Assembly: GCA_965285935.1 (NCBI GenBank)
Contig: OZ260664.1
Span: 15,996,001-16,060,000 of the forward strand
DNA length: 64,000 bases
Source of the DNA: Ophelia neglecta
Lineage: Eukaryota
Reading direction: 5' to 3'
Part shown: in pieces, positions 5,065 to 64,000 of the stretch
How positions within the stretch are numbered: position 1 is the first letter of the stretch
How the letters are laid out: every line of letters starts with the position of its first letter
Notes under the pieces: generated by a model
What the model was told of the DNA's origin: nothing
The model's database searches: none
What the model saw: the letters and a program-made list of their open reading frames with translations, nothing else
Translations under genes and position numbers: made by a program

Positions 5065-5660
5065 CCTGGGGGTCACACGAAGGGAGGGTGGTGTGAAAAA
5101 TATGTCTGCTGGGGTCACTGAGAGGGAGGGGTGGTGCCAAAATACATCTGGGGGGTCACTGAGAGGGAGGGTGGTGTGAAAATACATGGTAAAAGGGGAG
5201 AGGGTCACTGCGAGGATGGGTAGGTGTGAAAATACATCTGCTGGGGTCAATGAGAGGGAGGGGTGGTGCCAAAATACATCTGGGGGGGTCACTGAGAGGG
5301 AGGGATGGTGCCAAAATACAACTGGGGGGTCACTGAGAGGGAGGGTGGTGTGAAAATACATGGTAAGGGGGGAGGGAGGGTCACTAGGAGGACAGGTAGG
5401 TGTCAAATTCATCTGGTGGGGTCACTGGGCGGGGAGGGGTCACTACGAGGGAGGGGGGTGAGGTTGTCAAAATACATCATTGGGGGGAGCACTGGGAAGG
5501 AGGGGTGGGTGTCGAGTACTGTCTACATACAACTGGTGGGGTCACTTAAGTTGGGGCATATGTCACATTTGGAGTGTCACTGGGAGGGGGGGAGGTTGTC
5601 AAAATAAAACTTGGGGGGAGCGGCCAACAGGAGGGAGGGGTGGTGTCAAAATACAACTAG
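5065..5660. repeat. G-rich minisatellite, ~40-bp unit, degenerating rightwards
   Basis: Unit approximately CTGGGGGGTCACTGAGAGGGAGGGTGGTGTGAAAATACAT. It explains the repetitive ORFs at 5032-5677. Confidence 0.9.
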
Positions 5661-27039: not shown

Positions 27040-27795
27040 ACATGCCATGCTGATTACTGATAAGATTCAGAGTGAGCCTGTTTTGTTGACACAATAGATT
27101 AACATCTAAAGCCAAGGGGAGGAGGCTTATCTAAGGGGGGAAGGAGGGTTGGGGGTTACCTAGCACTCTTATGCAATGCTGATGTACTGATAAAATGCAG
27201 AGAAACCTGTTTTGATGTCACAAGAGATTAACATATAGATGGCAGTATAAAACTAGACTGAGGTTACAGAGGGGGGAGGGGGCAGCCAGGGGGAGGGTTA
27301 GGCATACAGCACAAAAAGGGGCAGGCAAGGGGAGGAGGGTTATCTTAGGGGGAAGGAGGGGGGAGGGGGTTTAAATAGCACTCTCATGCAATACTGATGT
27401 ACTGATATAATGCAGAGAAACCTGTTTTGTTGTCACAAGAGATTAACATATAAATGACAGTATAAGACTAGACTGAGGTTACAGTGTGGGGAGGGGGGTT
27501 GGGTTAGGCATACAGCACAAAAAGGGCAGCCAAGGGGAGGAGGGTTATCTAAGGGGGAAGGAGGGGGGGGGGGGGTATCCAGCACTCTCATGCAATGCTG
27601 ATGTACTGATGAAATTTAGTGAACCTGTTTTGTTTACATGTTTAGATTAACATGTAAATGACATTATAACAGGAGACTGGGGCTATAGGGGGGGGGGGGG
27701 GGGGCAGCCAGGGGGAGGGTTGGGCTTACAGCACAAAATGTGGCAGCCAAGGAGAGGAGGGTTATATAAAAGGGAGGGGGGGGGGGGAGGGGGGT
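27040..27795. repeat. Tandem array of ~200-bp G-rich units (3-4 copies)
   Basis: Repeated ATGCTGATGTACTGATAAAATGCAGAGAAACCTGTTTTG...AGATTAACAT...CAGCACAAAA...GGAGGAGGGTTATCT. Confidence 0.85.
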
Positions 27796-28703
27796 ATAAA
27801 AAGTCCAGTTTGCTCGGTTCATGAACATGATTTGTATGTTTGAGTGGGAACCAAGAGAGCAGACCTATCAAGTTTGTTTTGTTCTAGGCCCCTGTCACCC
27901 TATCCATAAGTATGAAATGGGACTTAGGGTAGGGCACCAGGGGTCCGGGTTGTTTTGTTCTTTGATACAATCATTCGGGGTGGAGGAAGGAGACTTAATA
28001 AAACAGACCTGTCTGGATTGTTCTGTTATTGGCCCACATTAAGGAACCAATATTTAGTATATTTCTTCTCTTTCAATTCTTTTTTCATGATGGAATTGAT
28101 CTCTAAGTTGGCGTATGTATAGAATTGACAATGACACCTTAATGACCGTATGATCTGAAATCAATCTATTGTCAGGCGTATTGGGCGTTTCATTCCCAGC
28201 GTTCAATCAAGGATCAGGCACAGTGTCACAAACTGAACTTCTTGAAAAAGATGGTCTGTGTGATTATTGAGTGATATTGAAGTTGTCGCACCATAACTTA
28301 TAGAAATAAAAATTATCATCATATTTTATAGGTCTTTAACAAGAAATTTCTCTCCCATTTAAGAAAAAAAACTGAAACAGTTTTCTTTTGCGAATCTAGA
28401 GTCTTATCCGAAAAAACATATTTTGTCAACTTAGAGCTTATAGCTACTAAACATGAATTATGTTTAGAGGCTATATAGCTGTTATTTATGTTGTGATAAT
28501 ATTGTTTTGCAAAACCACTTTACACTTTTAAGGCTTTAAAGAATCTGGATCACCCAGGAAATGGGCTCAAAGCATCATGTGTTTCACCTCAGATACCAGA
28601 GTGGGCTCTGGGGAATGGAGTGTGTATATATATATGCAGATACAAAATTGAAAATGTTACATGAACATAGCTGGCCGGTGAAGCAGTTAAAATTAGGGCA
28701 GTA

Positions 28704-29057
28704 GATGTACTGATGAAATTTAGTGAACCTGTTTTGTTTACATGTTTAGATTAACATGTAAATGGAATTATAACAGGAGACTGGGGCTATAGGGGGGGGG
28801 CAGCCAGGGGGAGGGTTGGGCTTACAGCACAAAATGTGGCAGCCAAGGAGAGGAGGGTTATATAAAAGGGAGGGGGGGGGGGGAGGGGGGTATAAAAAGT
28901 CCAGTTTGCTCGGTTCATGAACATGATTTGTATGTTGGAGTGGGAACCAAGAGAGCAGACCTATCAAGTTTGTTTTGTTCTAGGCCCCTGTCACCCTATC
29001 CATAAGTATGAAATGGGACTTAGGGTAGGGCACCAGGTGTTCGGGTTGTTTTGTTCT
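28704..29057 (+). repeat. Near-identical copy of 27600-27961, flanked by 34-bp direct repeats
   Basis: Sequence identity is visible directly (duplicate ORFs MIGLLSWFPL...). Flanks 28671-28704 and 29056-29089 differ at one base. Confidence 0.9.
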
Positions 29058-41154: not shown

Positions 41155-44100
41155 TTAAATGTGTAAAATGTTCTGCTCATCTGGTTTATCTACCAAGGAG
41201 TCTACAGCAGAAGGACTGGGTGGTTTTTCAGGCTGAGGGGCACTTGGACCGGCGGTAGAGCCACGGCCATCTTGTTTATCCGTGGCCTGGGTTGGACTTG
41301 AGATATCCCCAAGAGCGGTACTTTGAGACTTATTGTGTTTCACAATTTTACGTAGTATCCGAGCCTGGTCCTTCTCTTCTCTATTTTGCTTTTCGGCTAT
41401 TTCCTATTGAACATAGAAAATCAAGTGTATATAGGAGCTTGAGAAGTACAATGATTTCCTTTCATGCACAAAATATATACATTGCAATTACTAAATTTTA
41501 CTCTGCAATTATATCACATAGTTAAAGTCATTTTGAAGACGCTAATTGAATGCATAGTTTTGAAGGAATTTCATAATACCCACATTCTGTCGCATTTTGC
41601 GCTACTCAGGTTAACTTAAACCAACTCATATGTCACTAATAATTAGAACTTCCTGTGAAGCACTAGAAGTTTTGCGTGGTCTAACCTGTTGACGCTGTTT
41701 TTCCAACAAATAATTTATGTTTGTTGCCATTTCCCGGATGCGCGGATCCTCCTCGTTGTGTTTTCTAGAGCTCAGGCATAGCGCTCGATTGGTTGGGAAA
41801 AAATCGTAGTTCATTTCTCTTTTCTGCATAAGAAATAATCTATTGAGTAACGTAACGTAATTGATCGACAAAACACTTCTTTTATGATATTCACAGAATG
41901 TACCGGAAGATTCTTCTATTTTACCAACTTCAGAATGCCCAAGTCACCTTACATTTAAGACATTTTGATGTTCCATAATGAAAAACGTACTTTGTACATT
42001 TCATAATTGTATTCAATAGAAGGATCAGTCATAGTGTTTCTGCGTACATTGGTAAATTCTGAACTTACCAAATTGGCCACATAGTAATCCAGAGCAGTAT
42101 AGTCATTAGAGTTAGTGTTTTCCAGATAAATGAAGTAGTACATGTAAGACCACATATTGTGTTCCTGTTTGTAGTGATAACGAAAGCCCTGAATAAAAAT
42201 GGAAACAAACATAGCAGCTTTAAACTATTGCTCTCGAGATTTTGTGATTTTGTTTAATTTATGTTGTGGTAGGATCGTGGCTTTCCTCGGGATACGAATC
42301 CAAATATTCCAGCAAACCAATTATTTGATTCTAAGCCATATTTCAGCAGAATATTGGAACAGTCGGAAATGTTTGTTCCTGTATATACGATTTTCAAATT
42401 TTACCTTTATTAAAGCCAAAAATGTATTACCTTAGAGTGGTGCTCAAATTCATAGCTTGAAATGCTGCATATGAAACACAAGTCCTGCATATCCTTCCCC
42501 GCTTGATACTACAACGCATATGTACTCAATAAAAACATAGCTCAAGGTATTTCAAGATAATAATATCAATACGGATAACCATCGTGCGGCAGATACGCAC
42601 GCAGTCCGCCGGTTGGGCTGGCTTTCAATGTTTTATTTAGATAGATTGATAGATTGTTGATTAGAAATACCTTGTGTACATGTGTCATATTTATTTATCA
42701 TAAGAACATGGGTAAAAATTATTTTATATGAAATGATTAGAATTAAGATATGACTCACCTTCGTGTCCCTTAGTTCTGAAAACGTGTCCACGATGATACC
42801 AAATATAATATTAAGACCAATCGTGGTAAAGAAGATAAAGAAAGTGACTTGGTACAAGGTCAATAACCCAAATTCATAAAATGAGTTTGATAACTCGTTC
42901 AGTTGAATTATCTGCAAAAGAAGCAATATGGCACTTAAATTGAAGCAATACAACTTAACCGTTTGTGCTCCCATACAATTCAAATTTGGCACTTTTATGT
43001 TTTTTTTATCTCTTAAATATAACCATGCATATTTCTGTTTTCCAAAGGAAATATTTTGAACTAGAAATGAGGTACTGAAGTGACAGAAACAAAAGCCTAC
43101 CTCGGGGAGCATGTCTGTCATACCCCATCTTAACACGGTAACTGTACATTCATATAAATACCGACAGTACAGTTCATTCTTACTAATGAACACAGGGCGA
43201 AAGAAGGCAAACCCCACAAGGGCGTATATGTAAAGTACAATAAAACCGAGAACAGCAACCCACAGCAAAGACTTTCCTAGAAAATGATTAACAAGGTTTT
43301 AAAATGCAATGAGTAGGACGTTTAGTTTGGGATTCTGATATGTAATATTTATATGTGATTTCTAAGAGGTATATGCCTGTAGATGACTCCAGAACGATTT
43401 CGTCATTTCCTTTTAAATCTAGCGTTCTTGCTGTGTAATAAAAAAAGGTGTAAGACTAATTATTAACAGTCTAAAGTAAGGTTTACCGTTCTGGGTTACG
43501 GCTCGGATGACACCTTGCAGGAGTTCATTGATGGTGACAATGTGGAGCAAATGAAATGCAAACAAATACCCGTCCGTAAGTGTTCCACCAATTGACATAG
43601 CCAAAAGTGTCTGAAAGAAACTCAGTAATGTTAGTTTCCATTGAAATAAAATGGATACATTATTGCTTATGGTCGTTTTTGGTTACTTTGGTCTATGTAT
43701 TAAAGTTGCAAATCCTTCCTTGTCTCCGAAAACAGCTAATAGAGTATCGTTTTAAGGAACTTTGGGTATACAAAGGGCGTTTCATTATTCCACTTACAAA
43801 CTGGTAAAAGGTGGCAAAGGAAAAGAAGCGGGTTTCTGATTCCCTGCTAGTGTCTTTAGGTTCCCTCATGTCATCTTCCAATCTGATATCGCCACGCTCT
43901 TGGACAGAGCCAAAATGCCTGTGAAATTGAGAAGATGTTAATCCTATCTTATTATGCTCAATCAGGTTTCACACATTAAGAAAACATGTATATGGACAAT
44001 ACAATTTTAAGAGTGTTCATTTAATTTTGCTGATTTCTGTGCTTTATTAAAAGTTTAATCCTAGTTCAAACCTTTTAAAATAGTTCGATACATTTATAGT

Positions 44101-47100
44101 CAAGCCTGGGTTGGATAAAGACACACAGTAGATAAACTAAAACATTTGGCAGCACAAGAATTGTTCATCACAACCTTCAAGATGTTAACCAATTCATAAA
44201 CAGAGCAGTGATAATAGCACCAGAAAGCAAGAATCAACTCAATGGATTGAATCAACAGGGAACCGAAAGGGACAAAATGCAGGCCCAACACTGTACACCA
44301 GCAAGTTTTATTCTAGCAGTTGTCTCCTTTAAACAACACTCAAACGCTCATACATTGCGGGTAAAAGGGACTTATTACTGAATTATTATTATTTGAAGCA
44401 GCAACTATATAATACATCATGCTTTACCTTATTACGGTCCCACTTATAACGAATATATCAAGGTAAATATAAACAAATACATGATATAATGTTATTTTGG
44501 GGACATGCTCGCTAAGTAGACATTTTTCATTAACAAATGTCTTTTGCAAGAACCAAACCGTCAACCATTAATACAAATGAAAATTTCGTGTTTTCCATTA
44601 TGTCATTCGTTCTTGCAAAGCATACCAATTTTTCATTTTGATTTTAAATTACCTCAAGCCATTATACTGGTTATTTGAATAGCAACTTATTTCTAACTAT
44701 GCTCATCTTTCCCATACAATGATTAGATGCAGCCACACAACACATGAACTGCTTAAATTACTTAAAATAAACTATTTAAAAACTAAATCAATTATTAAGC
44801 AAAAACCATGGTCCATTCATTCCTCAAATTCAATTATTTCATCATACTTTCTCATTGCATATGACCCAACTTTTGTTACATTACTTCCCTAAGATTATAC
44901 TGATTTAATCTTATATTGTATTGAAACTTTAGAAACAACACGATTACTAAGCTGTCATTACAGATAACGAAATAAAAGAACGTATTCGAAAAAGATATAT
45001 TTTTTCTTAAAAGATACAAAGATGAGAAATGTGCGGAAGGAGAACCTTAGATATTTCCATTAAATTCAAACCATAAGTTGAACAGTAGTGATATTTTTTC
45101 TCATATTATACTCACTTCCCAAACCACCTTGATATTCGAGTTGTATCTGGAAGACGAGGGTGCTCCGACAGGAAGTAGCTAATGAGGACCAGCAATGAGA
45201 AGCAATTGTGGACGATACCTAATCCCATCAGTGCCTTGTCATACACACCTTTGTCTATCCTAAAGATGGGCCATGGACTGGAAAAAGAGAAAGCGAAATG
45301 ATGGCTACTATATATCAGTGAAATACGTCTTTTACGACGTATACTCTTATATCTAATAATTTTTAATGAAACTTACTTGCGGATCTCACGAGGTAAGTCA
45401 GAAGCAGTTGGAGATACATCATCTGCTGTGAAAGGAGCAATCCAAGTGCACAACATAAAAATGTTGATCACAACACTAAGGAATATTATAAAAACATTCC
45501 ACATTTTTCTGGAAATAAATAATAAGAATATCTCTTAGAAAGAGGAGGAAAAAAACAACGTTTACTCAATAGTTAACCATTGATACTAGTTGTAAATTAG
45601 ATCTTCACACATTGGATTTCTTTCCACTAGTCGTCAATATCGAACATTTGATCGAACAAGTTTAGATAAACAATTTTGACAATGTCTCCTTACCTTTTGT
45701 TGCAGATGATTTTTGTAATTGGGTTGGAAATGACCTTCTGGTGGTAGGAAATGTCTCTTATGATAACCTTGGACCAGAGCATAAAGTCCCTAATTTTCAT
45801 ACTAGGAGACGATCGATCAATATTCCATTTTAGTTTTTCCTTGATTTCATTCCTTATCAGATTCTATACTCCAGTAATAAATTAAGACATACCGTTAATA
45901 ATTACGTGTTCTTAATTCTTTATCACGCCTAAGGAGAGTACGTACTTGCCAATTATATTTATATACATAGTAAACAACAAGTTGTCCTAGTACACTTGAT
46001 CGTATAACAACTTACACTATCTGGGACATAGAAGTATGCCCTCTGTAAATAATCATCTTTGATAATTTCCACACTGTGAATTCTTGATTGGTAATAGTCC
46101 AACGCCCATACTACGTCATGTTGCTTCTCTTCTTCAAGCAGATTCCCTTAAGAAAAAGCAAGTTTCTTCGCTTGGGAACATTATCCGATTAACGAAAATA
46201 GGTTAAAGCAGCCAAAGCCAGTTTCATTAAATATATATTTACAAATATATAGTTAAAATCAAAAGGGTCGACTTACTACTCAAATTTTACTTTCACTTGC
46301 TTGGAATGAACGTTAGCATTATTAAGTTGACAATTCACTTGAATAAATAAAATAAGTGCTGTAAGCCTTGAGAATATGAGCAACTGTTCAAGTTATACAC
46401 AACTACATGCTCTCGTGATTTGCTTCGTGATTCTCTTATAGTGAAAATGAGAGGCTAAGGGTTGACGTCGATAGGATAAAATGTCATCAAGAGCCAAACT
46501 TAACAAAATGGATTTTATTATAGTTCGTTCATCAAAATTAAAAACTGACCCAAAGAACTTTTTCAAACACGAAATGAAAGGAAAATTACGACCTAACCTA
46601 ATACTTACCCCTTAAGACAGCTAGAAAAATACCATAATAATATTATCAATTTGATATATTCTTATTCGTTTAAATGTCAGTGCTGATGACGATAGGTTTA
46701 CGATGAGAGTTAATGTAGATGGAACAGAGGCATGATAAGAGACAGTATTCTTACCCAGATCTTCTTTTCTAACATCATGAAGTCTAGCGTAGACAATGTA
46801 GAATTGACATCCTACTTTCTTCGCTAAAGTTACCTAAAATATAAATTCATCATATACCAATATTTTCCTGACGTACTTTTAATACTACGATGCCCCGTAG
46901 CGCGGTAGAGCACTGGTAGCATACCCATCCTAAAGCCTTGGGGTCTAGGTTTCGACCCTATACCGGCGGCACCGCGTGGGCCCCTGGGCAAGAACCTTCA
47001 TCTTTCATGTTGGACTCCTTTACTGTAACATTAGTCATTTAGCGCCAGTGCCTGCAAATGGTGAATGCTCCGCAAGGAGTTGAGAATGCTCTGGACAGAA

Positions 47101-50100
47101 CAGGTCCAGTGAACGGGGAGGTAATTGTAAAGTCCTGAGAGCAGGCTCGCCTGGATCAAGTCAATAAGCCGAATACCTTGACCTTTAGCTCAATGGTATA
47201 GACTACAAGTCTTACTTCTTACGGATTTACAATGGAAATATATTCTGATAGGCCTTGCTTTCATTCGAAGATTGTTGTTAATTGGAAATTTGTTCACATC
47301 TTTTTTGAGTTTGAACTGGTATAATTTGATGGGCAAAGGGATTGCATTCATTGACTAATTTATGCATTTTTTGTCTTATTTTTTCCCATCTCCCATATAT
47401 TTTTCAATTTAGCCGATGCAAACTATAGTTCTAACGAATTATGACCTAAGGATATATTACTCACATGGCTTTTGTCATTGTCGAATATTGCAAAATGCTT
47501 GAAAGATGTATTTCGATGATTGAATCTAGACCATTTAGCCTAAAAGAGAACATAGACACGACATAAGATAGGTATTCAGGCATACGACAATGAAATAAAA
47601 GTTTTAGTGGCATTTAGCATCAACCAAGCAGCTCCCACAGACACACAGGCCCTCCTACCTTAACAATATTGCCAGAATAAGATTAACGTACCATCTGTGA
47701 TATGGCGTAGCATCTTGAAATGACGATGTTCAAGGCGTTGATATCTAGAGTATTGGCAATATCCTTAAAAAAGACAAATTTCTGAATAAAACTATTTTTC
47801 ATGTAATAGTTCAAATACTTTCATAAAGGAAAATACCGATTATGAAATATCAACTTTTCTGTCTTTGACATATTCGTATTAATGAATAGTGTATCAGTAT
47901 TTCATTCAGCCATATAAATTGTGCGCGGAATAAGTCAAATCAGATGAAAATAAAACAACAGACTCTATAAACAGCGAAGATAAATGTAATTTTATCTGTA
48001 TTATGTGTTCGCTTAATAGTGTGGCATGGGTATTTGATTTGTACATGACATTATATAAAATATATCTACTAATATATCACAGGATCAGGACACAAAACTC
48101 ACAGTTGCTATTTCCATTGCCTCCGGACCACTCTCTTCGATAAGGGAGATCAAGAGGTCAGCAATAATTTTGTACAGCTTCAGTACCTTTGTGATCATAA
48201 ATGTAACATTAGCTACAATTAGTCAATAAAAGTGCTTTCATTTTATGCTTGGATAACAACGCAGTGAAAATGAAAGAAAACGAAATATAGCATATGCTAT
48301 ATAGCATTTAATACACTCGCTGATATTTTGTCTATCGATTACCTTTCCTATTGGGCAATCAGAGAAAGAATCCCGCCTCAAAATAAAATTGATATAATCA
48401 ACAATTTTGTTATCCAGCGTCACATGGCGGTTTTCCTGGTTGCCCTAAATGAACAAGAAAACGAAAGAAAAGGATTTTTTTTTTGCAATTTATACAAACA
48501 AGAAATTACATAGGAGAAATGAGGCATATATAGTCTATTTTTTGGCATGATCGGGATGTAAACCGCATTGTTTTCTGCTAACATAGCTTTAGAAGTGCTA
48601 ACATAAAACCACCGTTCTTACATAATATTACATAGTTCGATTACCCTTAGAGCATACTACTTATAAAAAATTAATTATAGCGAGGAAAAGAAACTTAATT
48701 TAACAAAGGCAAAGCTGTAACCTGAGTGATTAACAAAACATTTTATTTGATCCATTACGGATCATTTAAATCTCGTCCTTTGGACTTTGATTTAAATGAT
48801 AAGGGAGCACCAATGTCACACTGTCACACTATACAAATATACTTACTGCACACATATCATTCAGACTTTTGAACAATGCATGAGCCAGATCTATAGAATC
48901 TGGGTCAATTTTCGTATACAGTACACCCGTGTACTGAGCTACTGAAGCTACCAAATTGAAGCCATGGAGATTATCTGGCTGTTCCCGACAATAGTCCTGA
49001 AATTTCAATTACAATTTAGGTGATAATATTTTTTATTGTAGTGTCTCCTGGTTCATATTTCACAGGCTAGTTTCAGTTTTCTTTTGTCATAAGTTTATGT
49101 GTTCTTGATGTATCGCGAAGGGGGGCTAGGCATTTTTCTTAACCGGACTGCTAATGCGCCTGCTGCAGTTTGCTTTCTCAAAATATTTCAAAACCTTGTT
49201 TCCACATAAGTGCTTTATCATTATGAAAAGGGGTTACTTTTTAAAGCAACAAAGCAACAAATATAAAAAAGTCATTGAAATTTCATTTCTTGTCTGAATG
49301 GGCTTAAGGGCCATAATTGCAATTGAAAATAAGGCATTAGTCACCATTATTAAATAAAGAAGTGACCACTTGATAATTTACATAGCAAGGCCAACGGATG
49401 AATCGCACGTATTTTTCATAAAAAGCTGGAACTATTAAATTAATTAATCCCTTACCTGCATACCACGGTGATGGCCATCGCAAAAGTTGGCAAGTACTTG
49501 CAGTATCAGTTGCACAGTTGTATCATGCAATTTGCCAATATTTTCTCCATGTGTTTCTGCATCTTGTAGATATTCGTCTACGTGATCTTTCTAATAAGAA
49601 TGAGATTAGAGTTTAAGGTTCAATAATGGAATGACAAAATAAGTCAATAACAATCTACAAACGGCAGTAGACCTTGTTGAATTAAATCATCCACCTTGTA
49701 AATTTGAGATGAAGTCATCCATGCATTATTTGCTTTTCCTTCAAGGTCATCAGTGGAGACAGAAACCTTTCCTTTTCTTTTATTCTTTGGGAAATTCCAC
49801 CAATTCAATGCGTTCTGCATTTTCAAAAAGGTGTGCTTGCATCATACAATCACACAAAATCCGTCATAACGTCAAAGTACAATTTCCTTCAGACCGGAAC
49901 ACCTAATTATACCAACCTTGGACTTCGATTTAGAATCCTCGTTATGACATGCTTCAGCTTTGACCTTTTTCTCCACCTGTCTCCTAAAAAATTGAAATTC
50001 GATGAGAAGATGATAGCAAAATTAGCCTAATGTACAAAAAAGCATAGCGTTTATGTCATGGTTTGAGCTAGTTTTTATGATTAAATAGGTAGTTGTGACC

Positions 50101-53100
50101 GTCGCTTTTGTTAATTCATGTATCAGCATTGTTTACCTTTCTTTAGTTACAATCGCAGAATGTGTCAGGTAATCTTTCACAAACATGAAGAAAACCTCTT
50201 CTCGAGTGCTTATGAAAAAGCGTAATGCAATGTCCTGTATATAAAAATATATAAGTTAACATAGTCCAACAGTTCTTTATGAAAAGGCATAGCAATATAC
50301 TTACAAATTAAAATGGTAGTTATCATTTTGAGAATTTGTATGTTGCTCCCTAACTATGCATATTGATGTCCATTAACATGTATTAAGTGCAAACCAAATA
50401 TGAACACAACTGCATTCAATATATTCATTATCCGCCCTACACTTTCGTGCATTAAATCCAAGTAGACAGATGAAAGTGGAAGTTTTAGCAATGAATACAC
50501 AACCTGTACGCTATTGTTTGCAGAATACAATATAGTGCCGAGAAGGGCAAGGCATTCTCTGAATATCCGCGTATTTTGTAGCGCCATCAATTTGCATAAA
50601 ATGGCGACCAACCCTTTGCTGGTGTATAGATTTTGGAGTTTTCGTATGTTCTTCATCCTCCTGATAAATATAAAGATTCCAGCCAGGATCGAATATTGGG
50701 AACGGAGTAAAGGCGTCCTTTGATTTAAGAGTTGTTATCACTAAAACAGTGAAATTTCTTAAAGGACTAGTACTGTTAAAGGGAAACGAATTATTGTAGT
50801 TGTTAACGGCTTATTATCTGACCTTTTGTACTTTTCACTTGTGATGGCTGATTCTATAGGGACGAGCACAATGTTGTTATGGATCAATCCACGGAGCACC
50901 TGTAGACAGGTCAATTCCAGCTGTCCATCCCCCTTATAATGTCCAGCCATCTTTAGGTTTGATGCAATCCTGAGAATATATAGTAATTGTATTTTATATT
51001 ACTGTGTTTAATACAACACAATCTTGCCTTTATTATCTTATGATAAAACATTGCCTAGGTCACGGTATATCGTTACAATTTAGGATTCTTAATTACTTAA
51101 TTAATGATTGTTGAATTACACAGTAATCAAACATTGTTACTAGAATCAAAAGATATTTAAAACGGTCCTTCCTTACTCCAACTGTTTAATAAGGGAGTCA
51201 ACGCCTTCATATCTAATGTACAAATTAGTGGATTTATCCGAAATAAAACACTGGACCAGGTTTTGAAAATCTTCTTTCAGCGGTAGCTCGGTTGCTGTGC
51301 CAAGTGCAGTGTACTCTGTAGTGAAATCAACAAGATATATTTTAGAATAAATGGCGTCTTAAGTCAAACTGATAATTTTTGCGAGCATATCCATAAACAT
51401 TAGGCCTGAGGGTAAAGGTGCTGTTGGAAACATAATGTCCGATATAATTGTGGGTTTTGCAATTCCCTGCGTTTAGACCATTGGCATTTATGATTTGACC
51501 TTGAAATAAAGATATCAGGACATCGACAGTAACAGGAGATCAGCTTGTTGTTTAACAAAGCTCCTTAAGCATAATTAAGGAAAGTCCGTACAATAAACCA
51601 TGTGCACGTCTATGTATTCGAGGTCTTCATATAATGCCCTTATACAAGGGTACACACAATTTACATGAAATAAAGATCAATCACGAAACATTAATATCAT
51701 CATTAGAATTCGGCATAGTTAATTATATGCCAACAGTTTGCTTGTTATCAGGCACTTATGTTTTACAATTCGATGATTACGGGAACTTTTTATGATCTGG
51801 TTGATAAGTGAACTCATTTAGAATTGGATTAAAAGTTTATGCCATCAGATTGGAAAATGTACAATATGATTATGTCAAACATAAAATGGAATGTAACATT
51901 AAAATATACAGTGTAAACCCAGGAACAAGGACAGGGTCAGATTCAAATGCCTGTAGGGTTCCGGTTTAACAGCTTGTGTTCAGCCATGGACACTAATCCA
52001 ACAAAACAATATTTATGTCTGCAACTTCTGGACGGCATGGAATAACATTTGACGAAAAAAAAAACATTTTAAACCAGCCAACGTTTTGAGCTAGATAAGT
52101 TTCGCCAGCCGTAGCGGATAAAACGCACTGTGACAATTTGTTCGGATGAGTATTTTCAATAAATTCTTTTTGTGTACTAGCTTCTTTACTTTATATTCTT
52201 CCCCTCATGGGGAGAGGTTTTCCTTTCAATTGGTCGTTTCAAACAATTAAACATATATATATCTTGCTACATCAATCGTTAGTAATACCGTAATCAGTTA
52301 TTGTGTTATAATGTGCCTTTGCGCAATTAAAAGGTAGTTTTCATGTGAATTAGTTTGACCTTTCTTACCTAAGTGATGATTCCCGGCACTTCTATTCCCT
52401 AGCTGGTCGGAAACTGTGTTTGGTCTGCTTAGGATTCGCATAACATTTGTTACAAAATCCCTTAACTTCTTGTTTATTGCAACCTCTCTTAGCTCGGCAG
52501 GACTCTCCTGGAACAAAATAAATACTTTACAAGATACAGTAAATTGATAAATGGTTCTCAACCGAATCGAGAAAACAGTAAACGGTATCAGCTGCATACC
52601 GACATAATATCCTGTGCTGTAGATATACGTGTTCTGTCACAATAAATGCGTGACTTGTTCACTTTACGCAAGTCACATTACTTGGTACAATCGAGCAGAT
52701 TTTATACCATTTTCCTCTTTAATATGCAGGGATATTTTTAACCAACCTATAGTTTTGTGTTTATGGAGACACTTATTCTCGTTCGTTCAATTGGATTATA
52801 CAATATTAAGTAGGAAGTTGTAAATGGAATGTCCATGGAGAACTTGAACCGTGCAGCTAATATGGGATCATGCTTACATCGCTTATCATGTTATCTTTAT
52901 GCCGTACTTCTTCGTATTTGTGTGGTATCGGCTTCAAAGTGTCTCTTATTTCCTACAAATAAATAAATGTTTTACCATTGATAAGGGTTATTTTTTTTAA
53001 ATTACGGTATCTTCGTATTTTCCTTAATGTGTTGGTTTGTCGCATATTTGGATTAACGAATACATAACTTACAGCCTCTCCATAACCACATTTTTCCATT

Positions 53101-56100
53101 ATGTTTTCCAACATTATTGTTTGCGTTCTTAACTGGATTTCTGAATCCACAGCCCCGACAATACTTGGATATAATCCCTGAAGCAGGACAGAGGTTAAAT
53201 TGCAACACGTTCAATATTATTCCAAATTAATTGAAGCCCAATAATAAGATATATGTTGTGCCATTCAAGTAGAGAAACAGTTTGACGACGTACTATATAT
53301 TTGTGGATCAATTTATCTAGGAGTTTCTTCTCCCGCTCGTAGAGAGAATTGTATTTGAAAATATCAACCATTCTCTGTAAAACAAAGAAAATACAACAGA
53401 AATAAGGAAAGTTATAGGTGAAATCTTATTCTACAGTGTTGATGCCCTGTTTATTGAAACATGTATTTGAACAGTAGATTTTGTCGATACTTGGATTGTA
53501 TGAAAATTCCTGCCTCGATGAATGGAAGAACTGAATCCAGTAGATAGTGGGATGTAAGCCACAAAAAGCATTCATCTGTCTTCTTCTCTGGTACAAAGCT
53601 AACAGGAAGTGAAAGCATGTGATTACTTATAAGTCACGTTAGCAACTAACACTAATAATACTACATCAACGGTTGTTTTCAAATATCTATAATATCTAAT
53701 ATGTTTCAGTAATCAACTTACGCTCTTCCTGCTCGCTGTCTCTTTGGCAACTTGTGTTTTTTCAAATGTTTTAAACATGTGGTTATATCGCCAATCAAGT
53801 GCCCCACGAAGTTCCATAGTAAGCTGGAAAGTAATTTTAATATTGTCGTTTCCAAAGAATTTCTTGAACGTATTGTTAGCAAATGAAGAATTGAAACACA
53901 TTCATAGCAATTATATGAGTGTATAAATTGGTCGAGCAGCGAGGAGCAAGTTGAAAAGGCGAGGGGCGAGGTGAAAAGCCGAGGGAGAGTCAAAAAAGCG
54001 AGGACAAGGAAAAACAAGTAAATTTATAAAATGCAAGAAGAAAATTGAATACATCATTGGAAAAAAGCTTGTATATTCAATTTGTCTCGAGCATGACATT
54101 ATATAAGCATTGAAAGACAATTGGCAAAGAACGGGAAACGTTCGGACACTGTGTCAGATATACATTTTACTTTTTATCCTGACCCCTCGCTTTTTAAACT
54201 CGGTTCTCGACTTTTCATCTCGCCCCTCGCTTTACAACTCGACCGATTTACACACTCCAGTTCCACATACCTTGAATGTACAATTGATGTTTCAGAGTTC
54301 ACTATTGTTGGGGATAAATTAAGCCAGGTCAGAAACTTCAGAAAGGATCTTTTTAGATTGTTGCTTACGTCCCGATTGTTAAGGATCCCTAGTGTCTCTT
54401 CGATGGGCATGATATTTCCACCAAGAGCGAGAAAGTGTGCAGCATTGTCCTGCAGGGTGTACAATATATGAGAGGGGATGTACCATGTAAGTTTATATTA
54501 AAGGATATATGTTATAAATGCTTAAAACAAGTATAGTGCCCACGGAAAATGTTTTTTTTAAAGACGGTGTTTATGGTATAGATGGGTAGGGCTGAGCCTA
54601 TTTTGTAGTTTAATATGACATGGTATTTAAGGCACATGTATGAACAAATAATGTAGGGCACATAAATAAGTGGATTGATTAGATGTAATTTATCTGGGAG
54701 ATTCGCAGGTCAAATAAATACCTTTGCACAAACAGCTAGCACACAAATGACGTCAACAAATGTTCTCAGAAGACTTTGCCCTCTTTTTGATAATAGGATA
54801 TCTACTCTGGAAAGGCAACAAGGAACATCCGTATGCAACTCACCATTTTAAAAGGTATTCTTGATACTTATTCAAATGAATTAAAATAGTATGTCCTGGG
54901 AGGGGGTGGGGCGGGGGGTGGGGGGTGGGGTACGCCATGTGACATCTCATAGCGACGTTTATTGGTTTCAGGGACATGCTGATTGAAAACACTTGTGCTA
55001 TGTTGGACAATTATGTATACATGGCCGTAAAACAACCATAATTCTCTCACAAATGTAAAAAGAAATTATGGGATTACGGGTGCAAAAAACCAGAATTTAC
55101 GCTATTTTGGCATATTTCACCGAGCCAAGATAAAGCGGAAGAATATTTTCCCACGAAATAGCCCAATTAGGGTCTAGTGAAACCTCATCGCCAGACTTGG
55201 GGAGGGGGAGGTGGGTGGAGGAGACGGGAAATACACATTTGCCATGATAATTATGAAACAAATTAGGTTGCTGCCTATATCAGCTCGCACACCTTTGCTC
55301 GACAGTGGGCAATTAGCGATTTGTGGTAATTATAAGTTTATAACGCATTTATTTGTTCCTTCTCAAATATATTTGTTTGTCACAGTTAACCTGGTGAAAT
55401 ACAAAACGATAAAGTGTGTTATAATTATTTATCAGAGCTTTTCACAGTTAATTTGGGAGTGGACAAGGGTTAAACGAGTGCTTAACCATTTATTGGCTTA
55501 AAGATTTCACTAATTTAAGAATCACGCGGGTAAAGGTTCACTGACCCCCCCCCCCCCCCCCCCGCCAAATAAACATGTCACAAGAATTACAAACCTTTCT
55601 TGGTGTGGACATTCAAATAGTCGAAATGATTTTGCGGAAATCTGTTCAAGAGCTGATTTCATGAACATGTACTGGTTTCTTTTGTTGATCGTTTGTCCGT
55701 CCATCAGGATTAAGGATAAAATGACCTCAAAAATCTCAGTTACTTGTTTGTTCTCTATGGTGATCCTCTGAAGTTTGATTACATGCCGCTGTTCTATTCT
55801 ATTGCACAAGGTGTGGTTGTGTACAAAGATCTGTAATATCAAACAATGTTCACTTCAACGTTTACCTAAAGCAAAAATTCTATCAGCCACAAAATCTATC
55901 AGCCACAAAGAACAAATTACAGGCAGCTGTTAGGGAACAAATTCTTAATAGATTATTAGTAATGAGTTAGCGCTATTATGTAAGAAGATGTAATGATGTA
56001 CCTCTTTTATAGTTTCCACCATGCAAGCCAACGCCCATCCGCAATCGAGTAAGGTATCAATATTCAGAAAGAGAAATTCCTGAATGTACTGGTTTTTGTG

Positions 56101-59100
56101 GCAAATCATTTGAAGCAACTTCAGGGAGTGCCGCATAAGAGATTCAAATTGGACATCGGATGCCTTAGGTTTAACAATAGAAAAGAAGAGAACTTTTGAG
56201 TTATCTTTGACAAAGGATATTGTAATTTTGACTGAATAACAATGAAAGTAATGTACGCACTCCATTCCTGCCTTCCTTGTCCATCTTAAGCATTTTCAGC
56301 AGGACCTCGTGAACTCCTTGATTAACCATCATTCTTTGTCCAACAAAAGACACAGTTTCTGGCCTTTCACTGTCTGACACTTGACAAAATCTGTTCAAAA
56401 TAACACATTTTATAAAACCTGTTCGTTTGAATATTAAATAAAAATGTATTAGCTTGTTTACAAAAGTGTGGCTAATCTTTATACTAAAATAGAGCTATTT
56501 TATTACAAACTGGATGCAAATTTATAATTGTGTTTTATTTACACCGATTTTAAAAAGAAAACACCACATACTGATTGAATTTAGCAAGAATAGCATTTGC
56601 CACTTGTATTTGGTCATCATGTATCTTCACAGCTACTGTCCGCATTAGAAGAGGCATGAAAATCCGGATCTCTCCCAGCATCTCACAATGCTTATCGTGC
56701 AGCAAAAGCTATATTCAAAGAATGGATTTTCCTTAAAGAAATACCTTAAGGATAGGTGAGGCATGGAAATAAATGTTTTTGCCATGAAAATGATTTGACA
56801 CGTATAACTTCCTGGCAAATAAACCAATTCAATTACCTGTGAGCGTTGAGCAGCCTTCAACAATTCTTCTTTGGCTGAGTACTCCCTGGACAATATTCCT
56901 AAAGACTTTGACGTCATTTTGGCGCAATCATAGTTTGCTAGGTCCTACAATTAGAACAAAATACATGTCGCAGGAAAAAGTTCCAACACAAAAGGGTATT
57001 GGAAGTCAGTTTTAATAAACCCTAAATAAGAATAGGATTATTCTAGCTAGCTATTACCTTTACCTTCAATACAGGCACCAATTTATCAAATCCAACAGCT
57101 ATGTATTCCTTCAATAGTAATTGAAATAGTCGATCCAATTCTTCTCTTGGTGTCCGCAGAAATCTAACAGAAAAATAAATCAGAATTATTTTATGCATAT
57201 TTAATTTTTGTGCTGTTCCTGGTCGGTAAATTAATGGGACTGATATACTGATATTTTGGCAAATTGTTGTCTGCTTTTATCATAAAATTTGAGGTCAAAT
57301 AGAAACAAATGCCTAGATTTAAAGAATAATTTACCAATTTTGGCCGTTAACTCTATCTTTAGATAATATCCTTTATCTTAGAACCGGGTATCGTGGTTAT
57401 AGTTCAGATATAAAAACATTTCGGAAAGAAAACACGCATACGCTGACTTACAGTTATGGACACGCATAAAATAATGTTTCAATCGGCCAGTAAATTCCAA
57501 AAATACATTTCGTACAATAGGGCTAATGAGTATCAAGCCATGTTCAAAAAACAAATAAAACAAATAAGGCCATAATCAAGAAATTTTCGTTAGCTAATAA
57601 CTCTCTATTCGCACCCAGATACATAGTTTCAAGTCTAACATACACAGTAAATTTTATTTGCGAAATTCTCCTGTTCTCAAAAGTTACTTGGTTTACACTA
57701 CTTACAAAAGAAAAAGTTTCATCCTCCTTGATTCAGTGCCGTATATCAAGTCACTCAAAGGGTTCTGGGTTCGTTCCACTGCTTGGTCGTTCTCCAGAGC
57801 CACTTTGAAATGAGCCATGAAAATCTTCAAGGTAAGAATTAAGTTTGCTTTTAGTAAATTATTTGAGTTATGTGCTATCACAAATGTGCTATCCAAAGAA
57901 GATAGTTGTTTTCTTCATATAACAGTGTGGTGCTACTGAAAATCTATAATACCTCGCATCTGAAGAACTGCGCCAGTCTCAGGAAATGGTCAACAATTAA
58001 AAGAGCTCTGGAAATATGTACCTACTATATCAACATGGCTAGATTCATAAGCAAAAATTTAGTGGACCCTACAATAGCACTTTCTTAACTTCTTACGTTA
58101 TGAAAAACAACAATTTATGTAGCAAATCAACAGTTCCCGCATTGAAAATAAAACTGATAGCACTTACTGATACTTGATGTCGGCCACAAGACGATTTTGC
58201 TCAGATTTCTCGTATCTTGTTTTGGACCGGTAGATACTCAGTTTGGCCGTAACATCCCGTCGCAAGGCAGAGTTTTTCGTCTTAGAGACTGCTTGGCAAA
58301 TGTCAAAAATATTTTTCCTGGCATTACGTTTTGTTTCTTACGTAGAACTGCGCCTTGTTTCACTTCATGCTTTGAAAGTTGTCAGCATGGGCAGTTTCAT
58401 GTGTGAATATTGCATTGACGTATTGTTTTGAATACTATTGTGTTTTATAGTTTAAAGAGAAGAGAGGAAAGACTAGTGTGTTTTTTGTAATACATATTTT
58501 ATACTGACGTCTTTGTTTATGAAGACATAGACTACAAAAAAGGGTATGACGAAGTGACATTTTGATTCAAATGGCAAACTGCTGTGGCATTACCTTTCTG
58601 CAGTTCAAGTGAGACGTCATTACTTGGCACATCATTATCACCCTTTAATATATCAAAGATGTAGGGGCCAATAAAGTCTGCTTTCTTAGAACTGATGTAT
58701 CCAAAAACTAGTAGGTTATACACCAGTTTCAATACCTGTGATAGCAAAGAAAGGAATAAGTTAACAAATTCAATAATATCAAATACATTTTCAGGTTAAA
58801 AGCTATTAGTCTTATATACCTACAGCTAAAATAAGCTGGTTTTTCTTCACTTCAGAGGCCACTAATACAATGTTTTCATCAAGGAATGTAAACAACCATT
58901 TGTAAATCTTTGGTAGGCGTTCTTCTAGATTGCGGTCAACCTATAAAAAAGATGAATAAATAAAGTCAAAGTCAGTTCATCAATTGGATTTCTATTTGGG
59001 GTCGGTGATGTGTTATGTGTCGATAGTATGTAAATTTCGGCTGTTTTTAACACGATGCTCTATTGCCATTGTTGGGACTGCCGACGTTATGAATCGTGCA

Positions 59101-62100
59101 TAAATAGGTCCTCTTATATTGATTTGGATGTATCGAATGTTTTACATGCAACTTACATATTGTGGTTGCTGGTTGAGCCATTCTTCAGGTGTTTTGTGTG
59201 TATCCAGGCGGTTGTAGTCATAGTTATTCCCTACACAATCTGACAGTGGAGTGTTCTCGCCAACATCGATAAATAATGCTAGATTACAAAGAGCCCACAG
59301 TTATTCATTAATGATCATTTCCGGAGGCAGACTGTGTAACTAAGAAACAATTGATAAAGATTATTTCAATAAAGAACTAAGTAATTAACAAACGTGGCGA
59401 GTTTACAGCTTTCGATTGTTACTATTATTCAGCTGCTGCTTAGCGATAAATTTGAAGAGGTAAATCAGAAAAAATTATAGTAGTGTTGTTTTCCCACGGG
59501 ACCCTCTGAAGCTAAAATTGGATGAACTATATATATTCAAAAAAAGTATTGATATGAGAAGTTATTTAACGAAAAATGAACGCATGGGATAAAATAATTG
59601 TATTAATGATTCGATCATCAAACTTGACATTGTATTGAAAGAATGTGAATGGCTAATAAACCATTAGTTCGAATAACATGCTAAGTATCAAACGGTTAAT
59701 GTATTGCGTTTCAATGATTAGACCATAAAAACCTAGCTTAGCGTCATATGATAGGTAATTAATTTATCACGAAACTGCATTTAAGCTTTAGGTCATACTT
59801 ATTATAAGATCACAGAACATAGCCTTCATCTCAGCAGAAATGGATGCACTCTCCAAAACACCAAGGCAAACCTCAAACGAGATGTAGTCCACAGCAATCA
59901 TCTCAATATTGGTTTGATTGCGTCCCTAAATAAAATTTGACTGGCCTTTTTAAGATGTGGAATCTAGTAAAGCGCTTGCTTTTAGTAAGTTCCATATATA
60001 TTAGACATGTACGACGCATATGCTACCAAATATGCACTATTGGAAAAGTAATGTTAATGTATTAATTTCCAGTGAGAAACTTACTAAACATAGGCACTCG
60101 AATAGTTCTAATTGTTCTTTCAAAAATCCAATTTCGTTTCCAGAAGATGTTCCAGCTAGGTCCTTTAATACAGGAATGAATTAATGCATCTTTATATGAG
60201 CGGTCATACTACACAGATAAGTTGCTTTAATTGGTTTAAGGAAACTAAGAAAGTGATAAACACAGAAAGTTGATTAAGGTTTTAAATGTTTACAATGATC
60301 TCACTTTGAAAAATGATTCTATCGGTTCTTTTTCGGCCGTTTTCTTTCTCCACACATAAACTTTGTGGTCTTGGCCATTGTAGGCGAAATGAAACAGTTT
60401 GTTCTATAAAACAAAACAAAATATGAGTATAAACTGATAACCCCCGACTTTGTTCCATCGGAATGAATGTCCCAACAGATCGATTCGGTACATTTGTGTG
60501 TTGCTTGTTGTAAAATGAATGTACCTTTTTTTGAACGAGCAATCGATGCCCAATGTAGTTTTGGTTCTCAGGTATTGCCACACCGTCACAGACACATAAG
60601 GCTCTCAATAATTGCAGATAGGTATTGTGCTAGACGATAAAATCATATATGAACAACTGTGTGTACGTGGAGAAGGTAAAAACAGGCATGTAAATAAAAA
60701 TACAATGTTGCGCCAGCAGGGTTTGGCTTGTTTGATTAATAACTAATTCAGTGAATAAGGTTAAACAATGTTCACTTCATTTCATAGTCTTATACAATGC
60801 GTCTGACAATGAAATAATATATATGCATATGGATTTAGGTAAACTCATAGATTACTTGAGTTTTTTCTTATGAATGTATGCATTGCTTCGAGAATATAAC
60901 TCTTTAACTAAATAAAAGATACGTGCCTCCGATTTATTTAGCAGTCGTTCAATTTGCTTTGGAGTTATCTTTTCAATCACTTGGCGTTTGTTGGAGAGCA
61001 ATTCGACCAAAAGTTTGGTGATATCAGAATCGGCATTCGCCTACAACAAATGGCAGTTAATTTTCCCTTTTACTGAGAAATACTCATCTGGTATCGGACA
61101 AGTGGGTTTTCATGTCTATCTGTCGCTTCATCGTCAAAAACCAAAACATAAGCAGTGTGTTTTTCAAGTCATATTCGTTTTTTCTCATATATAACGACTA
61201 TAGCTCCGTAATTAACATTATTTCCCAGAAAAGTAACATTAAATGGTGTTTTTAAACAATGACAGTGATATGAATATGAGACACGTCAATGAATTTAATG
61301 TGACGTGTAGTAAAATGAACTTCTTACCGCTGTGCTTATTCTTTCCTGGAAGAAGTCCATATATTTTGATATGTAGAGGCAGCTTTCTATGTTCGAACTG
61401 GTGAAACTCAACAGAAGATCGTAGATAGCGTGGACTGTCCGGTCAAAGGACCTCTCCACCTGGGCATCTCGCATGGCGTTAACGATCCTTAACAACTGGA
61501 TGCACATTGTCAAAACCTAACAATGAAGAAGTTCACACCAATGCTTTTATATGACCTATTGGGACATAGAACGTTAAAAGGAAGGAATATGATTGCTTCG
61601 TGCACAAATAACAAAAGTGAACTATTCACCCGTACTCAATACACGGTATATTTGTAACGCTTACGTTGACATTGACTTATCTCTGTATCAATAAGGACAT
61701 GGAAAGTAGGTTTATGTAATAGAAATCAGGAAAGGCATTCGACCATGTCACGTAAGGCTGGATGGACATACATGGCAACAAGAATAGTTTTCATGTGACC
61801 TACTTGCAAATCCTGGATCATTTTCCTTCTACAGTTGGCAGCTGAGACTTGTCTAAATCGGCGGTTGTCCATTTCAAATCTCTCCTCGTCCATATCATCT
61901 TCTTCTGCCACATATACTCTTAGTTCCGCGAGGGCCTAAGAAAGAGCGTTTGGTAGAAATAAAACAGAATTATATTAGAAGTTAAATAGTCAACTCCTGG
62001 TTACGAAATAATAAATGGCTTGCTAGTATCTGTTTATATTTTCAAAACATGCCAGTTTAAAGAATTCACACATAGTGCTACTCACACTGTATTCAACAAT

Positions 62101-64000
62101 TAAGTGCTAAGTGATTGTTTAGCTCCATCAGGCATCAACTTCGAAGATTACAGAATTCATCATAAATAGAAGACAATCTCATAATCGAGTTGGTATCCAC
62201 TTGCGTTTATTTGACAAAGAATTCTTTCTTTTTTCCAGAGAATTGGTTTAAACTACTTTATTGCTTTAATGCCCAGATAGACCTTGCGGAATCAACCGAC
62301 TTTCTATCATATATGCCACACCAAATATGTAATATATTCTTCTCACCGAATTCAATACTTCCATTTCCAATTCGGATAACTTCCCTTTTGACCTAAGCTA
62401 GAAACAACAACAACAAAAAACACCAACTTTCATAACAACAAAACACGCGGGTCTAGACATATTGATCCTTCAAATAAATAATTAATCTGTTAGAATATTT
62501 CTATTATGGTCGGACTTGATTACCTCTTGCAAGCCATTGAGGAATAATGGAGCTATTCCAATCACAAAGTTACAGTCGGCCAGGAGATTACTGGGAATGC
62601 ATGACACCGTGAAAGCGTCCTGGTAAAACTTCTGTTCGGTGGCAACCATCTTAACAATAAGAATAGATTAAGTTAGATTTTTCAAACACGAATAATCCTT
62701 GTCTGTTGAGAATGTCAACTAATGCCGTGCATCGATCAGTGGTTCCCCTTTGACTGTTTACTAAAATGCCATAAACATACTATGTTGTCCTGTGGTATAT
62801 ATATGTTAAACAAGTTATGCCTTAAGTATTAAAATCTTCAATAAACGAAGTTAATTTTCATGGCAAACTCTTGTATGTAGCTTCTTAGCAACTTACTTTC
62901 TTCCTGGTTTGTCGATCATCGTCATCCTGTTCACATTTAAATGTTGCTGCAAATAAATGAAATTCAACCCTTACTTAAATAAAAATACATTACTAGTTCC
63001 GATCGGCAGAAAAACAAAAACAGGGTATACATAGGCTGATCTACAAGTGAGTATCATCATGTTACCTTCTTATTTACTTATAAAGATACTAAATGCGTCC
63101 CTTAAGGTCACTTAATGATGTAATTAATGCTGGGCATGTTGAGCATATGTATATATTTTGACTTGTCTCACGATATACGTTGCCGGAACTGTGAGAACAA
63201 AAGCGACTCACCGTTTTCACAATGTATCCATCTTCCAGAAATCACGTGTTGTATTCTGACATAAGTTCCATTTTCCACGCTGCCAAATTCTCTTGTCTGC
63301 ATGGTAAAGAAATTTAAGATACTTCTGGTACGATTATTAAATTCTACCAAAAGCCAGCCAAGAAGTGATTTTAGCAAATAAGCATTTGTATTTATAGCTA
63401 TGAAACCCGTTTTATTTGATATTCTACCTTGTGCATCGCGTGAAATCTGAAGATGGTGTTTGGCAGCGCCTCTTCTGAGAGTCCCACTGAGCCATCCTGG
63501 GTGTCCACGTACAGATATCTCCTGGTTGGTACGTGCTTGATTCGAATGGGCTGACCCCACAGCATTTCTTCCCCTGGGTATAGTGGAATAAAATAGCAAC
63601 TTGATGCTTGAAATGTACGGACGAAGCCCAATGTCGTTATAGGGCATATCCTAAATAATTAGGTTTCATTTAACCCTTGACATATATTTTAACATAGCAG
63701 TATGGTCATAACATTAGCACAAAAGAGGCACACAGAAATTTAACATAAATAACTTTATTCCTGGTAGGAGAAGGTATCCCTGAGTTGCAGGACCATTCTT
63801 TTATTGTGCAATAATGCTCCCGTGTATATCATTAAATGAAAGGATAAGTGGTTTCTAATACAACGCATTTACTAATAAAGGGTGCTCCTTTCTGGAAGCA
63901 ACCTAAGTTTAATTTATAATAATGGTATTATTATTACCAGCGAGGATGCTGCTTTCCATTTCCAGTTGCCAGAAGGTTGTGCAGTTAGAAGGGGCGTACA
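41155..64000 (-). CDS. ITPR: Divergent inositol 1,4,5-trisphosphate receptor-like Ca2+-release channel (5' end beyond window; ~2,310 codons here)
   Basis: 58 phase-consistent exons: 64000-63938, 63573-63428, 63296-63212, 62946-62897, 62649-62524, 62397-62347, 61935-61804, 61516-61328, 61040-60927, 60629-60525, 60403-60305, 60162-60085, 59925-59799, 59278-59157, 58940-58824, 58735-58594, 58288-58168, 58007-57953, 57824-57706, 57163-57064, 56944-56837, 56708-56572, 56390-56261, 56163-56002, 55830-55595, 54806-54722, 54449-54271, 53823-53722, 53598-53514, 53374-53294, 53177-53073, 52952-52878, 52507-52369, 51315-51177, 50969-50823, 50660-50504, 50234-50137, 49983-49917, 49814-49695, 49590-49456, 48996-48847, 48444-48343, 48186-48103, 47763-47692, 47539-47465, 46833-46755, 46146-46016, 45863-45694, 45508-45377, 45277-45116, 43918-43798, 43610-43487, 43276-43101, 42911-42759, 42508-42431, 42188-42069, 41823-41686, 41403-41155. 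Motifs: MIR (WGQPIRIKHVPTRRYL, VRIQHVISGRWIH), RIH (LCVCDGVAIPENQ), RIH-associated (FCDGHHRGMQDYCREQ), SVEIIKD, LNIIFGIIVDTFSELRD, CFIC...HYKQEHNMWSY, FFPTNRAL. Confidence 0.93.
46892..47185 (+). mobile_element. tRNA-derived SINE in an ITPR-like intron
   Basis: A-box-like TAGCGCGGTAG and B-box-like GGTTTCGACCC. Then G.CCCTGGGCAAG central domain, ATGCTCCGCAAGGAGTTGAG, and a TGTAAAG..CTGAGAG 3' segment resembling L2-mobilised SINE tails. Confidence 0.65.
53917..54257. mobile_element. Foldback MITE in an ITPR-like intron
   Basis: ~90-105 bp imperfect inverted arms: GAGTGTATAAATTGGTCGAG...GCGAGGGGCGAG.TGAAAAG and CTTTTCATCTCGCCCCTCGC...CTCGACCGATTTACACACTC. Confidence 0.75.

Follow-up and report, generated by a model that had tools for sequence, protein, structure and literature searches.

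Ryanodine receptors are IP3-independent release channels of about 5000 residues, which carry SPRY and RY-repeat domains and have a homologous N-terminus without the basic pocket. The IP3R-B of Capsaspora reportedly neither binds IP3, nor releases Ca2+ in assays, nor associates with mammalian IP3Rs, so that IP3R-B proteins in general are putative channels. Members of the IP3R-like family that are not gated by IP3 have been described before, IP3R-B reportedly being one group of them. The CRC channels of Paramecium are another, as described in the accessible part of PMC3213138. According to the accessible text of PMC7992859, the bilaterian ancestor had IP3RA, IP3RB and RyR, and IP3RB was lost in vertebrates and is absent in fly and nematode; the same text gives the physiology of IP3R-B as largely undetermined and records high expression in leech touch neurons.

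Here we describe gene A of Ophelia neglecta, a gene on the minus strand of the window, which is the whole stretch of 64,000 nucleotides that was analysed (G000:C7:15996001-16060000). The initial annotation had compared it with rodent IP3R1 and read it as an otherwise intact IP3R-like gene that had lost its IP3-coordinating residues.

Gene structure and selection

The part of gene A in the window extends from exon 10 (in part) to exon 67 (41155..64000, minus strand). The full model, built from exon-by-exon conservation with a tandem twin, gene B, has 67 exons encoding 2598 amino acids with no internal stop; 58 of the 67 exons overlap the window, exons 1-9 lie outside it, and the start codon is at the window-equivalent position 69004 (G000:C7:16065004). 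The models of both genes follow splice-bounded blocks of 70-88% identity between unalignable introns, and a few boundaries, in the poorly conserved exons 41, 47 and 48, may be off by some codons. The two peptides noted earlier at 61328..61935 are both encoded on the minus strand there, by exon 16 (61935-61804) and exon 17 (61516-61328). The earlier statement that 58 exons stay open, taken as an argument against a pseudogene, stands with the qualification that three introns of gene A, after exons 9, 18 and 38, require GC donors. Gene B has GC donors after exons 19 and 38, one GC donor being common to both copies. The GC-AG intron sites of gene A lie at 60921-60926 and 53508-53513 of the window, with the exon 9 donor outside it, and the exon 19 donor is GT in gene A and GC in gene B.

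Single exons of gene A gave Pfam matches to RYDR_ITPR, MIR, RIH_assoc and Ion_trans, most of them under the curated cut-off because the exons are short, and a single-exon query against the PDB gave no IP3R match. The full protein aligns end to end with proteins bearing PF08709, PF02815, PF01365, PF08454 and PF00520, four of which also gave the single-exon matches; suppressor/MIR beta-trefoils, RIH, RIH-associated and six-helix ion-transport domains thus follow each other in the order of the IP3R/RyR superfamily.

Gene B lies upstream on the same strand (G000:C7:16101646-16071364), has 67 exons and 2600 residues without an internal stop, and ends 6359 bases before the start of gene A. The two proteins are 74% identical overall and 79% in the binding core; in a DNA search with the exon 16/17 stretch, gene B was the one other copy, 80% identical and 35 kb away. 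Between the twins dS is about 0.94 and dN/dS is 0.156 overall (about 0.16, the measure that had been proposed as a check) and 0.135 in the binding core, as computed before two 3-nt boundary adjustments of the models. Haplotype differences were taken from contigs of three runs of one sample, perhaps the window's own source. Exons occupy 30% of the stretch, and none of the 14 indels listed fell in them (chance 0.007); of the 45 substitutions listed 5 were exonic, four of these being silent; a further 194 substitutions and 13 indels lie beyond those listed. By these sequence measures, gene A is intact and under purifying selection.

The introns of gene A hold high-copy repeat elements (53900-54930 and 52700, with read depth up to tenfold), and the other haplotype has a 34-base deletion adjoining the exon 31 acceptor (56712-56745). 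Elsewhere, the window contains a multi-exon GMC oxidoreductase (glucose dehydrogenase-like) gene at about 24100-15350 on the minus strand (PF00732, E 6e-15 on one exon), as well as G-rich tandem arrays at 5068-5440 and 27110-27703 with 42/174-base and 215-base periods; the sequence near 27670-27880 is repeated at about 28750-28980.

Placement within IP3R-B

Querying the genome with the S6 exon returned seven loci, the canonical ITPR not among them. Besides genes A and B these comprise five further IP3R-B genes (C7:47.67-47.71 Mb, C7:54.84-54.87 Mb, C7:41.81-41.84 Mb, C2:59.76-59.98 Mb and C2:10.06-10.11 Mb), each of which has all six basic pocket residues. C7 carries one subclade of five loci, genes A and B included; the remaining two loci are on C2, where one gene extends over more than 200 kb. 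In a FastTree phylogeny of 60 sequences and 2452 columns, with two IP3R-A sequences and no RyR as outgroup, genes A and B are nested in a spiralian IP3R-B subclade (SH-like support 1.0), and the stem leading to them measures 1.49 substitutions per site. The IP3R-B label rests on a clade that contains Capsaspora XP_004347257.1 and on the accessible part of PMC7992859; this Capsaspora accession differs from the IP3R-A accession quoted in the available text of 10.1101/2022.03.07.482538. Of the 66 introns of gene A, 49-50 are also present in the three other C7 paralogs, against 10 in the canonical ITPR; over four paralogs the range is 47-50 of 66, and 25 are shared with a partial fifth model. Its protein is 28-35% identical to the paralogs, with 44-49% in the membrane region for those on C7, and 21% identical to the canonical ITPR, with 27% in the membrane region. 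Because of its nesting in the tree and the shared introns, gene A is assigned to the IP3R-B subfamily.

Thus, of the initial reading of gene A, its intactness held, whereas rodent IP3R1 was the wrong yardstick, as the gene is an IP3R-B and not an impaired copy of the ordinary receptor, a complete canonical ITPR also being present in the genome. A comparison with rodent IP3R1 therefore mixes changes found throughout the subfamily (T267, R269 and Y567) with special ones (R241, R265, R511, R568 and K569).

IP3R-B relatives in the databases come from molluscs, annelids, nemerteans, brachiopods, hemichordates, an acoel, Trichoplax, a sponge, choanoflagellates and Capsaspora, and for two of the paralogs the nearest is Capitella, at 66-68% over the stretches that match. 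No ortholog of gene A with a readable N-terminus was found in two word-based protein searches and twin-exon alignments, which covered proteins of up to 2000 residues and are weak evidence, or in one metagenome scan. Nor did phmmer with the membrane exons against 1.84 billion representatives give a clear ortholog; 9 of the 161 proteins retrieved, all of them fragments, scored about equally with genes A and B and with other IP3R-B. A tree of the membrane region joins genes A and B with one metagenome fragment of 182 amino acids, P0001 (support 0.94), a possible relative in another animal. A separate RyR-like locus is present at G000:C1:89.14 Mb.

Loss of the basic pocket

Residues are numbered as in rat IP3R1, by ungapped alignment of exons of the canonical ITPR of this genome (C1:82.85 Mb) to rat IP3R1 PDB chains. 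This fixed R241, R265, R269, R504, K508, R511, Y567, R568 and K569, all of which the canonical ITPR retains. In gene A, R241 is replaced by Q, R265 by W, R269 by a non-basic residue, R504 by N, R511 by Q and Y567/R568/K569 by N/I/E, and K508 is kept; gene B shows the same changes except for K at 504. Exon 16 of gene A (61804..61935, minus strand; 132 nt) carries N501, R503, K505 and Q508 (61813..61836), which correspond to positions 504, 506, 508 and 511, so that R506 is also kept. The peptide noted earlier for these positions continues through the phase-0 junction into exon 17 (61328..61516, minus strand), in which the first RIH/armadillo repeat of the binding core is found (PF01365, E 3e-4) and in which N553, I554 and E555 (61385..61393) occupy positions 567-569, S-R-K in nearly all IP3R-B. 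Only the 3' part of exon 10 (63938..64000, minus strand; whole exon 64045-63938) lies in the window. Its 5' part, just beyond the edge, holds W282 (position 265) and Q284, the latter at a position that is Arg in 115 of 117 IP3R-B sequences. The region of R265, which had been placed outside the window, is thus located there, with R265 changed to W and R241 to Q. As exon 10 contains neither Arg nor Lys, no realignment is able to restore basic residues at 265-269.

Positions 265, 511, 568 and 569 are non-basic in MAFFT L-INS-i, in a second full-length alignment and in an HMM that was built from IP3R-B sequences without genes A and B. The HMM places the 265 and 511 segments at top posterior; it needs a one-residue gap for the 567-569 segment, and in no case do basic residues line up with these positions. 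At 504 and 508 MAFFT gives N and K, and the HMM is uncertain, handling this stretch as an insertion. The residue changes first read by eye in exons 16 and 17 were therefore recovered by MAFFT and, for 511, 568 and 569, by the second alignment and the HMM as well, and the profile alignment and realignments that had been proposed as checks did not restore the basic residues. A search of the flanking introns of gene A for an alternative exon with basic motifs found none, and exons 16-17 have the letters of the window throughout the assembled contigs of the three runs, which stem from one sample that may itself be the source of the window.

To place these losses within the subfamily, 121 IP3R-B sequences with a binding core were surveyed, 116 from databases and five paralogs of this genome. 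Of 140 long database proteins, 23 without a binding core were left out, and 10 of the 121 sequences were gapped at one of six sites (265, 504, 508, 511, 568 and 569). Its sequences are redundant, hence not independent, and were chosen for similarity to a limpet protein, so that the sample under-represents comparably divergent copies from other animals. All six residues are basic in 106 of the 111 scorable sequences and five are basic in the other five, so five is the minimum of the sample; gene A keeps one and gene B two. By position, basic residues were counted in 114/116 (265), 119/119 (504), 119/119 (508), 118/119 (511), 115/118 (568) and 118/118 (569) sequences, and this near-invariance runs from Capsaspora and choanoflagellates through molluscs. 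The set is near-invariant in this sample, and we did not locate it as a published IP3R-B criterion; the choice of pocket residues follows the accessible part of 10.64898/2026.05.22.727127. T267 and R269 are generally missing from IP3R-B, and 117 of 118 sequences have Ser in place of Y567; gene A likewise has none of the three. Judged from this survey, subfamily membership explains the losses at T267, R269 and Y567, and does not explain the remaining ones. The literature searched yielded neither a survey of the pocket residues throughout IP3R-B nor an animal IP3R-B described as pocket-less; an alignment of this kind could exist in subscription papers such as Alzayady 2015 with its supplements. 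The conservation of a basic pocket across IP3R-B points to an anionic ligand.

At other conserved Lys/Arg columns gene A stays basic in 29 of 34 cases, and set against these the pocket loss is significant (Fisher p 0.002 for gene A and 0.016 for gene B). Measured against the erosion of the core itself the excess is modest (p 0.035 and 0.14), and conserved columns are kept at 36/63 in the binding core of gene A versus 83/122 in the middle armadillo region, a difference that is not significant (p 0.15). Pocket loss may thus be in part general divergence on a long branch.

A lengthened loop before the 504-511 helix

Exon 16 measures 132 nt in gene A versus 81 nt in five IP3R-B paralogs, which amounts to a 17-residue insertion directly before the 504-511 helix. 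The resulting loop of 24 residues (61837..61908, minus strand; from alignment and HMM) is 17 residues longer than in IP3R-B and 5 longer than in the canonical receptor, with an acidic first half (61905-61873) and a basic second half. The acidic insert EEDDMDEERFE described earlier is present, and is better regarded as part of this longer loop, its acidity being only partly kept in the twin and the adjoining basic half kept. In that half, RFRQVSA is identical in genes A and B despite three silent changes, and it includes RFRQVS (61843..61860, minus strand), a candidate kinase site; gene A has no other RxRxxS/T motif. Since chance alone should give a protein of this length about one such motif, its position beside the emptied pocket is a lead found after the fact and not evidence. 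As a caveat, an anion site could be rebuilt from the new basic residues of the loop along with R503 and K505.

The channel end

The membrane region and tail of gene A keep 73 of 75 conserved columns, and the suppressor domain keeps 38 of 45. Exons 62-63 (42759..43276, minus strand; here and below from the full-length alignment) encode S5, the pore helix, the filter loop and the S6 gate, the last with the sequence IIFGIIVDTF as in all IP3R-B among those listed. The filter of gene A is G-M-T-D (43101-43130) and not glycine-rich as in the canonical channel, for which the accessible text of PMC3213138 gives GGG(V/I)GD; animal IP3R-B among those listed are also without this motif, having GLIGD, GFIDG and similar sequences. 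In exons 64-65 (42069..42508, minus strand), the region of the C2H2 zinc finger and ATP site, all four Cys/His are kept. The Ca2+-sensor region is encoded by exons 49-50 (48847..49590, minus strand). There, gene A has Asp at both acidic positions and keeps the His; the first Asp is typical of animal IP3R-B, and the second position is Glu in gene B and the other sequences listed. Because of the non-canonical filter and the Asp at the first Ca2+-sensor position, permeation and Ca2+ control of animal IP3R-B may differ from those of canonical receptors.

Possible function and alternative explanations

Gene A encodes an intact, selected IP3R-B subunit which has lost its basic pocket (five of six residues), and we consider it probable that this subunit forms a tetrameric ER cation/Ca2+ release channel that opens independently of IP3. 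Counting against this are the modest excess of pocket loss over the erosion of the core, the chance of a rebuilt anion site in the loop, the non-canonical filter of animal IP3R-B and the absence of Ca2+ release reported for the Capsaspora IP3R-B. The suggestion of an IP3-insensitive channel is thereby supported as probable, given a robust pocket loss in an intact and selected gene. Gene A would have originated by a duplication within the spiralian IP3R-B subclade, after which its lineage with gene B may have undergone a burst of change, followed by tandem duplication into the two genes and by constraint since. Subunits of gene A would assemble with themselves or with those of gene B and conduct ions. 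With the phosphate-binding clamp gone, gating would proceed via the retained lower machinery, namely the Ca2+ sensor and the ATP/zinc-finger site; alternatively, the remodelled binding core might receive its input from phosphorylation or from a partner protein.

A real if unlikely possibility is that the pocket loss was a by-product, IP3R-B being already blind to IP3, with basic residues that are structural or vestigial and were dropped by a fast-evolving pair whose gating is that of other IP3R-B. Gene A retains only 57% of conserved columns in the core and 68% in the middle region, IP3R-B are generally without T267, R269 and Y567, and the Capsaspora IP3R-B reportedly lacks IP3 binding, all of which would fit. 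However, near-invariance of the six positions from Capsaspora and choanoflagellates to molluscs is unlike that of vestigial surface charges, the other conserved Lys/Arg of gene A are mostly kept, and the changes are radical (R to W, R to I, K to E). It seems quite unlikely that the IP3R-B pocket serves a polyanion other than Ins(1,4,5)P3 and that genes A and B have dropped ligand gating for phosphorylation through the RxRxxS loop.

A dominant-negative partnership with the canonical receptor, the other role first proposed, is unlikely in view of the low identity between the two proteins (21% overall, 27% in the membrane region) and of the Capsaspora IP3R-B, which is said not to associate with mammalian IP3Rs. 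A modulatory or dominant-negative subunit that blunts the ligand response of its partners would most plausibly act on the C7 IP3R-B paralogs, to which membrane-region identity reaches 44-49%. We regard even this role as clearly improbable: opening of IP3Rs requires all four sites to be bound (accessible text of PMC8578705) and binding-dead subunits are dominant-negative (accessible text of PMC7939385), but strong constraint extends across the whole 2600 residues, pore and gate included.

It is very unlikely that the pocket has changed its ligand and binds a less acidic or cationic small molecule via W282, N553, E555 and the kept R503 and K505. Both copies have the same replacement residues although several of the codons differ silently, and the binding core is constrained as much as the rest of the protein; yet with the core 79% identical, six matching positions would arise in roughly a quarter of cases, and there is no candidate ligand. 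That gene A is a recent pseudogene or an assembly artefact, as its three GC donors might suggest, is extremely improbable, since the changes are common to two independent copies, one GC donor is shared by both, the listed indels avoid exons and the branch to gene A is not longer than that to gene B (0.14 versus 0.19).

An IP3R-B subunit that opens independently of IP3 would make genes A and B a candidate animal release channel of IP3R size that is gated without inositol phosphate, and the pair could provide a natural negative control for identifying the ligand of the IP3R-B pocket. IP3R-B is widespread in invertebrates.

Comparison with known systems

Gene A resembles canonical IP3R-A receptors (ITPR1-3; PDB 1n4k, 3jav, 6dqj) in architecture, zinc finger, gate residues, K508 and R506, and differs from them in its 21% identity to ITPR, its 10/66 shared introns and the lack of a glycine-rich filter. 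Nine IP3R-A pocket residues are listed in the accessible part of 10.64898/2026.05.22.727127 (R265, T267, G268, R269, K508, R511, Y567, R568 and K569); the C1 gene of this genome has all nine, and gene A keeps one, K508. Compared with ryanodine receptors, gene A is half the size, and its 2598-residue model is colinear with IP3R-B from start to stop, which leaves no room for RyR-specific domains. The CRC channels of Paramecium likewise form an expanded IP3R-like family with members that are not IP3-gated. In those channels, as far as the available text of PMC3213138 goes, the IP3-binding region is missing or unalignable, whereas in gene A, an animal gene, the domain is present, constrained and changed at single points.

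The closest likeness is to other IP3R-B, such as leech ip3rb1 and ip3rb2 (in the accessible part of PMC7992859) and Capsaspora CO.IP3R-B, with which gene A agrees in tree position, introns, domain order and size, as well as in the loss of T267, R269 and Y567, the non-canonical filter, the Asp at the first Ca2+ site and an S6 of the IFGIIVD type. It differs from them in the loss of R241, R265, the IP3R-B-specific Arg two residues on, R511, R568, K569 and the basic residue at 504, in the 17-residue insertion before the 504-511 helix and in its identity of 28-35% to its own paralogs.
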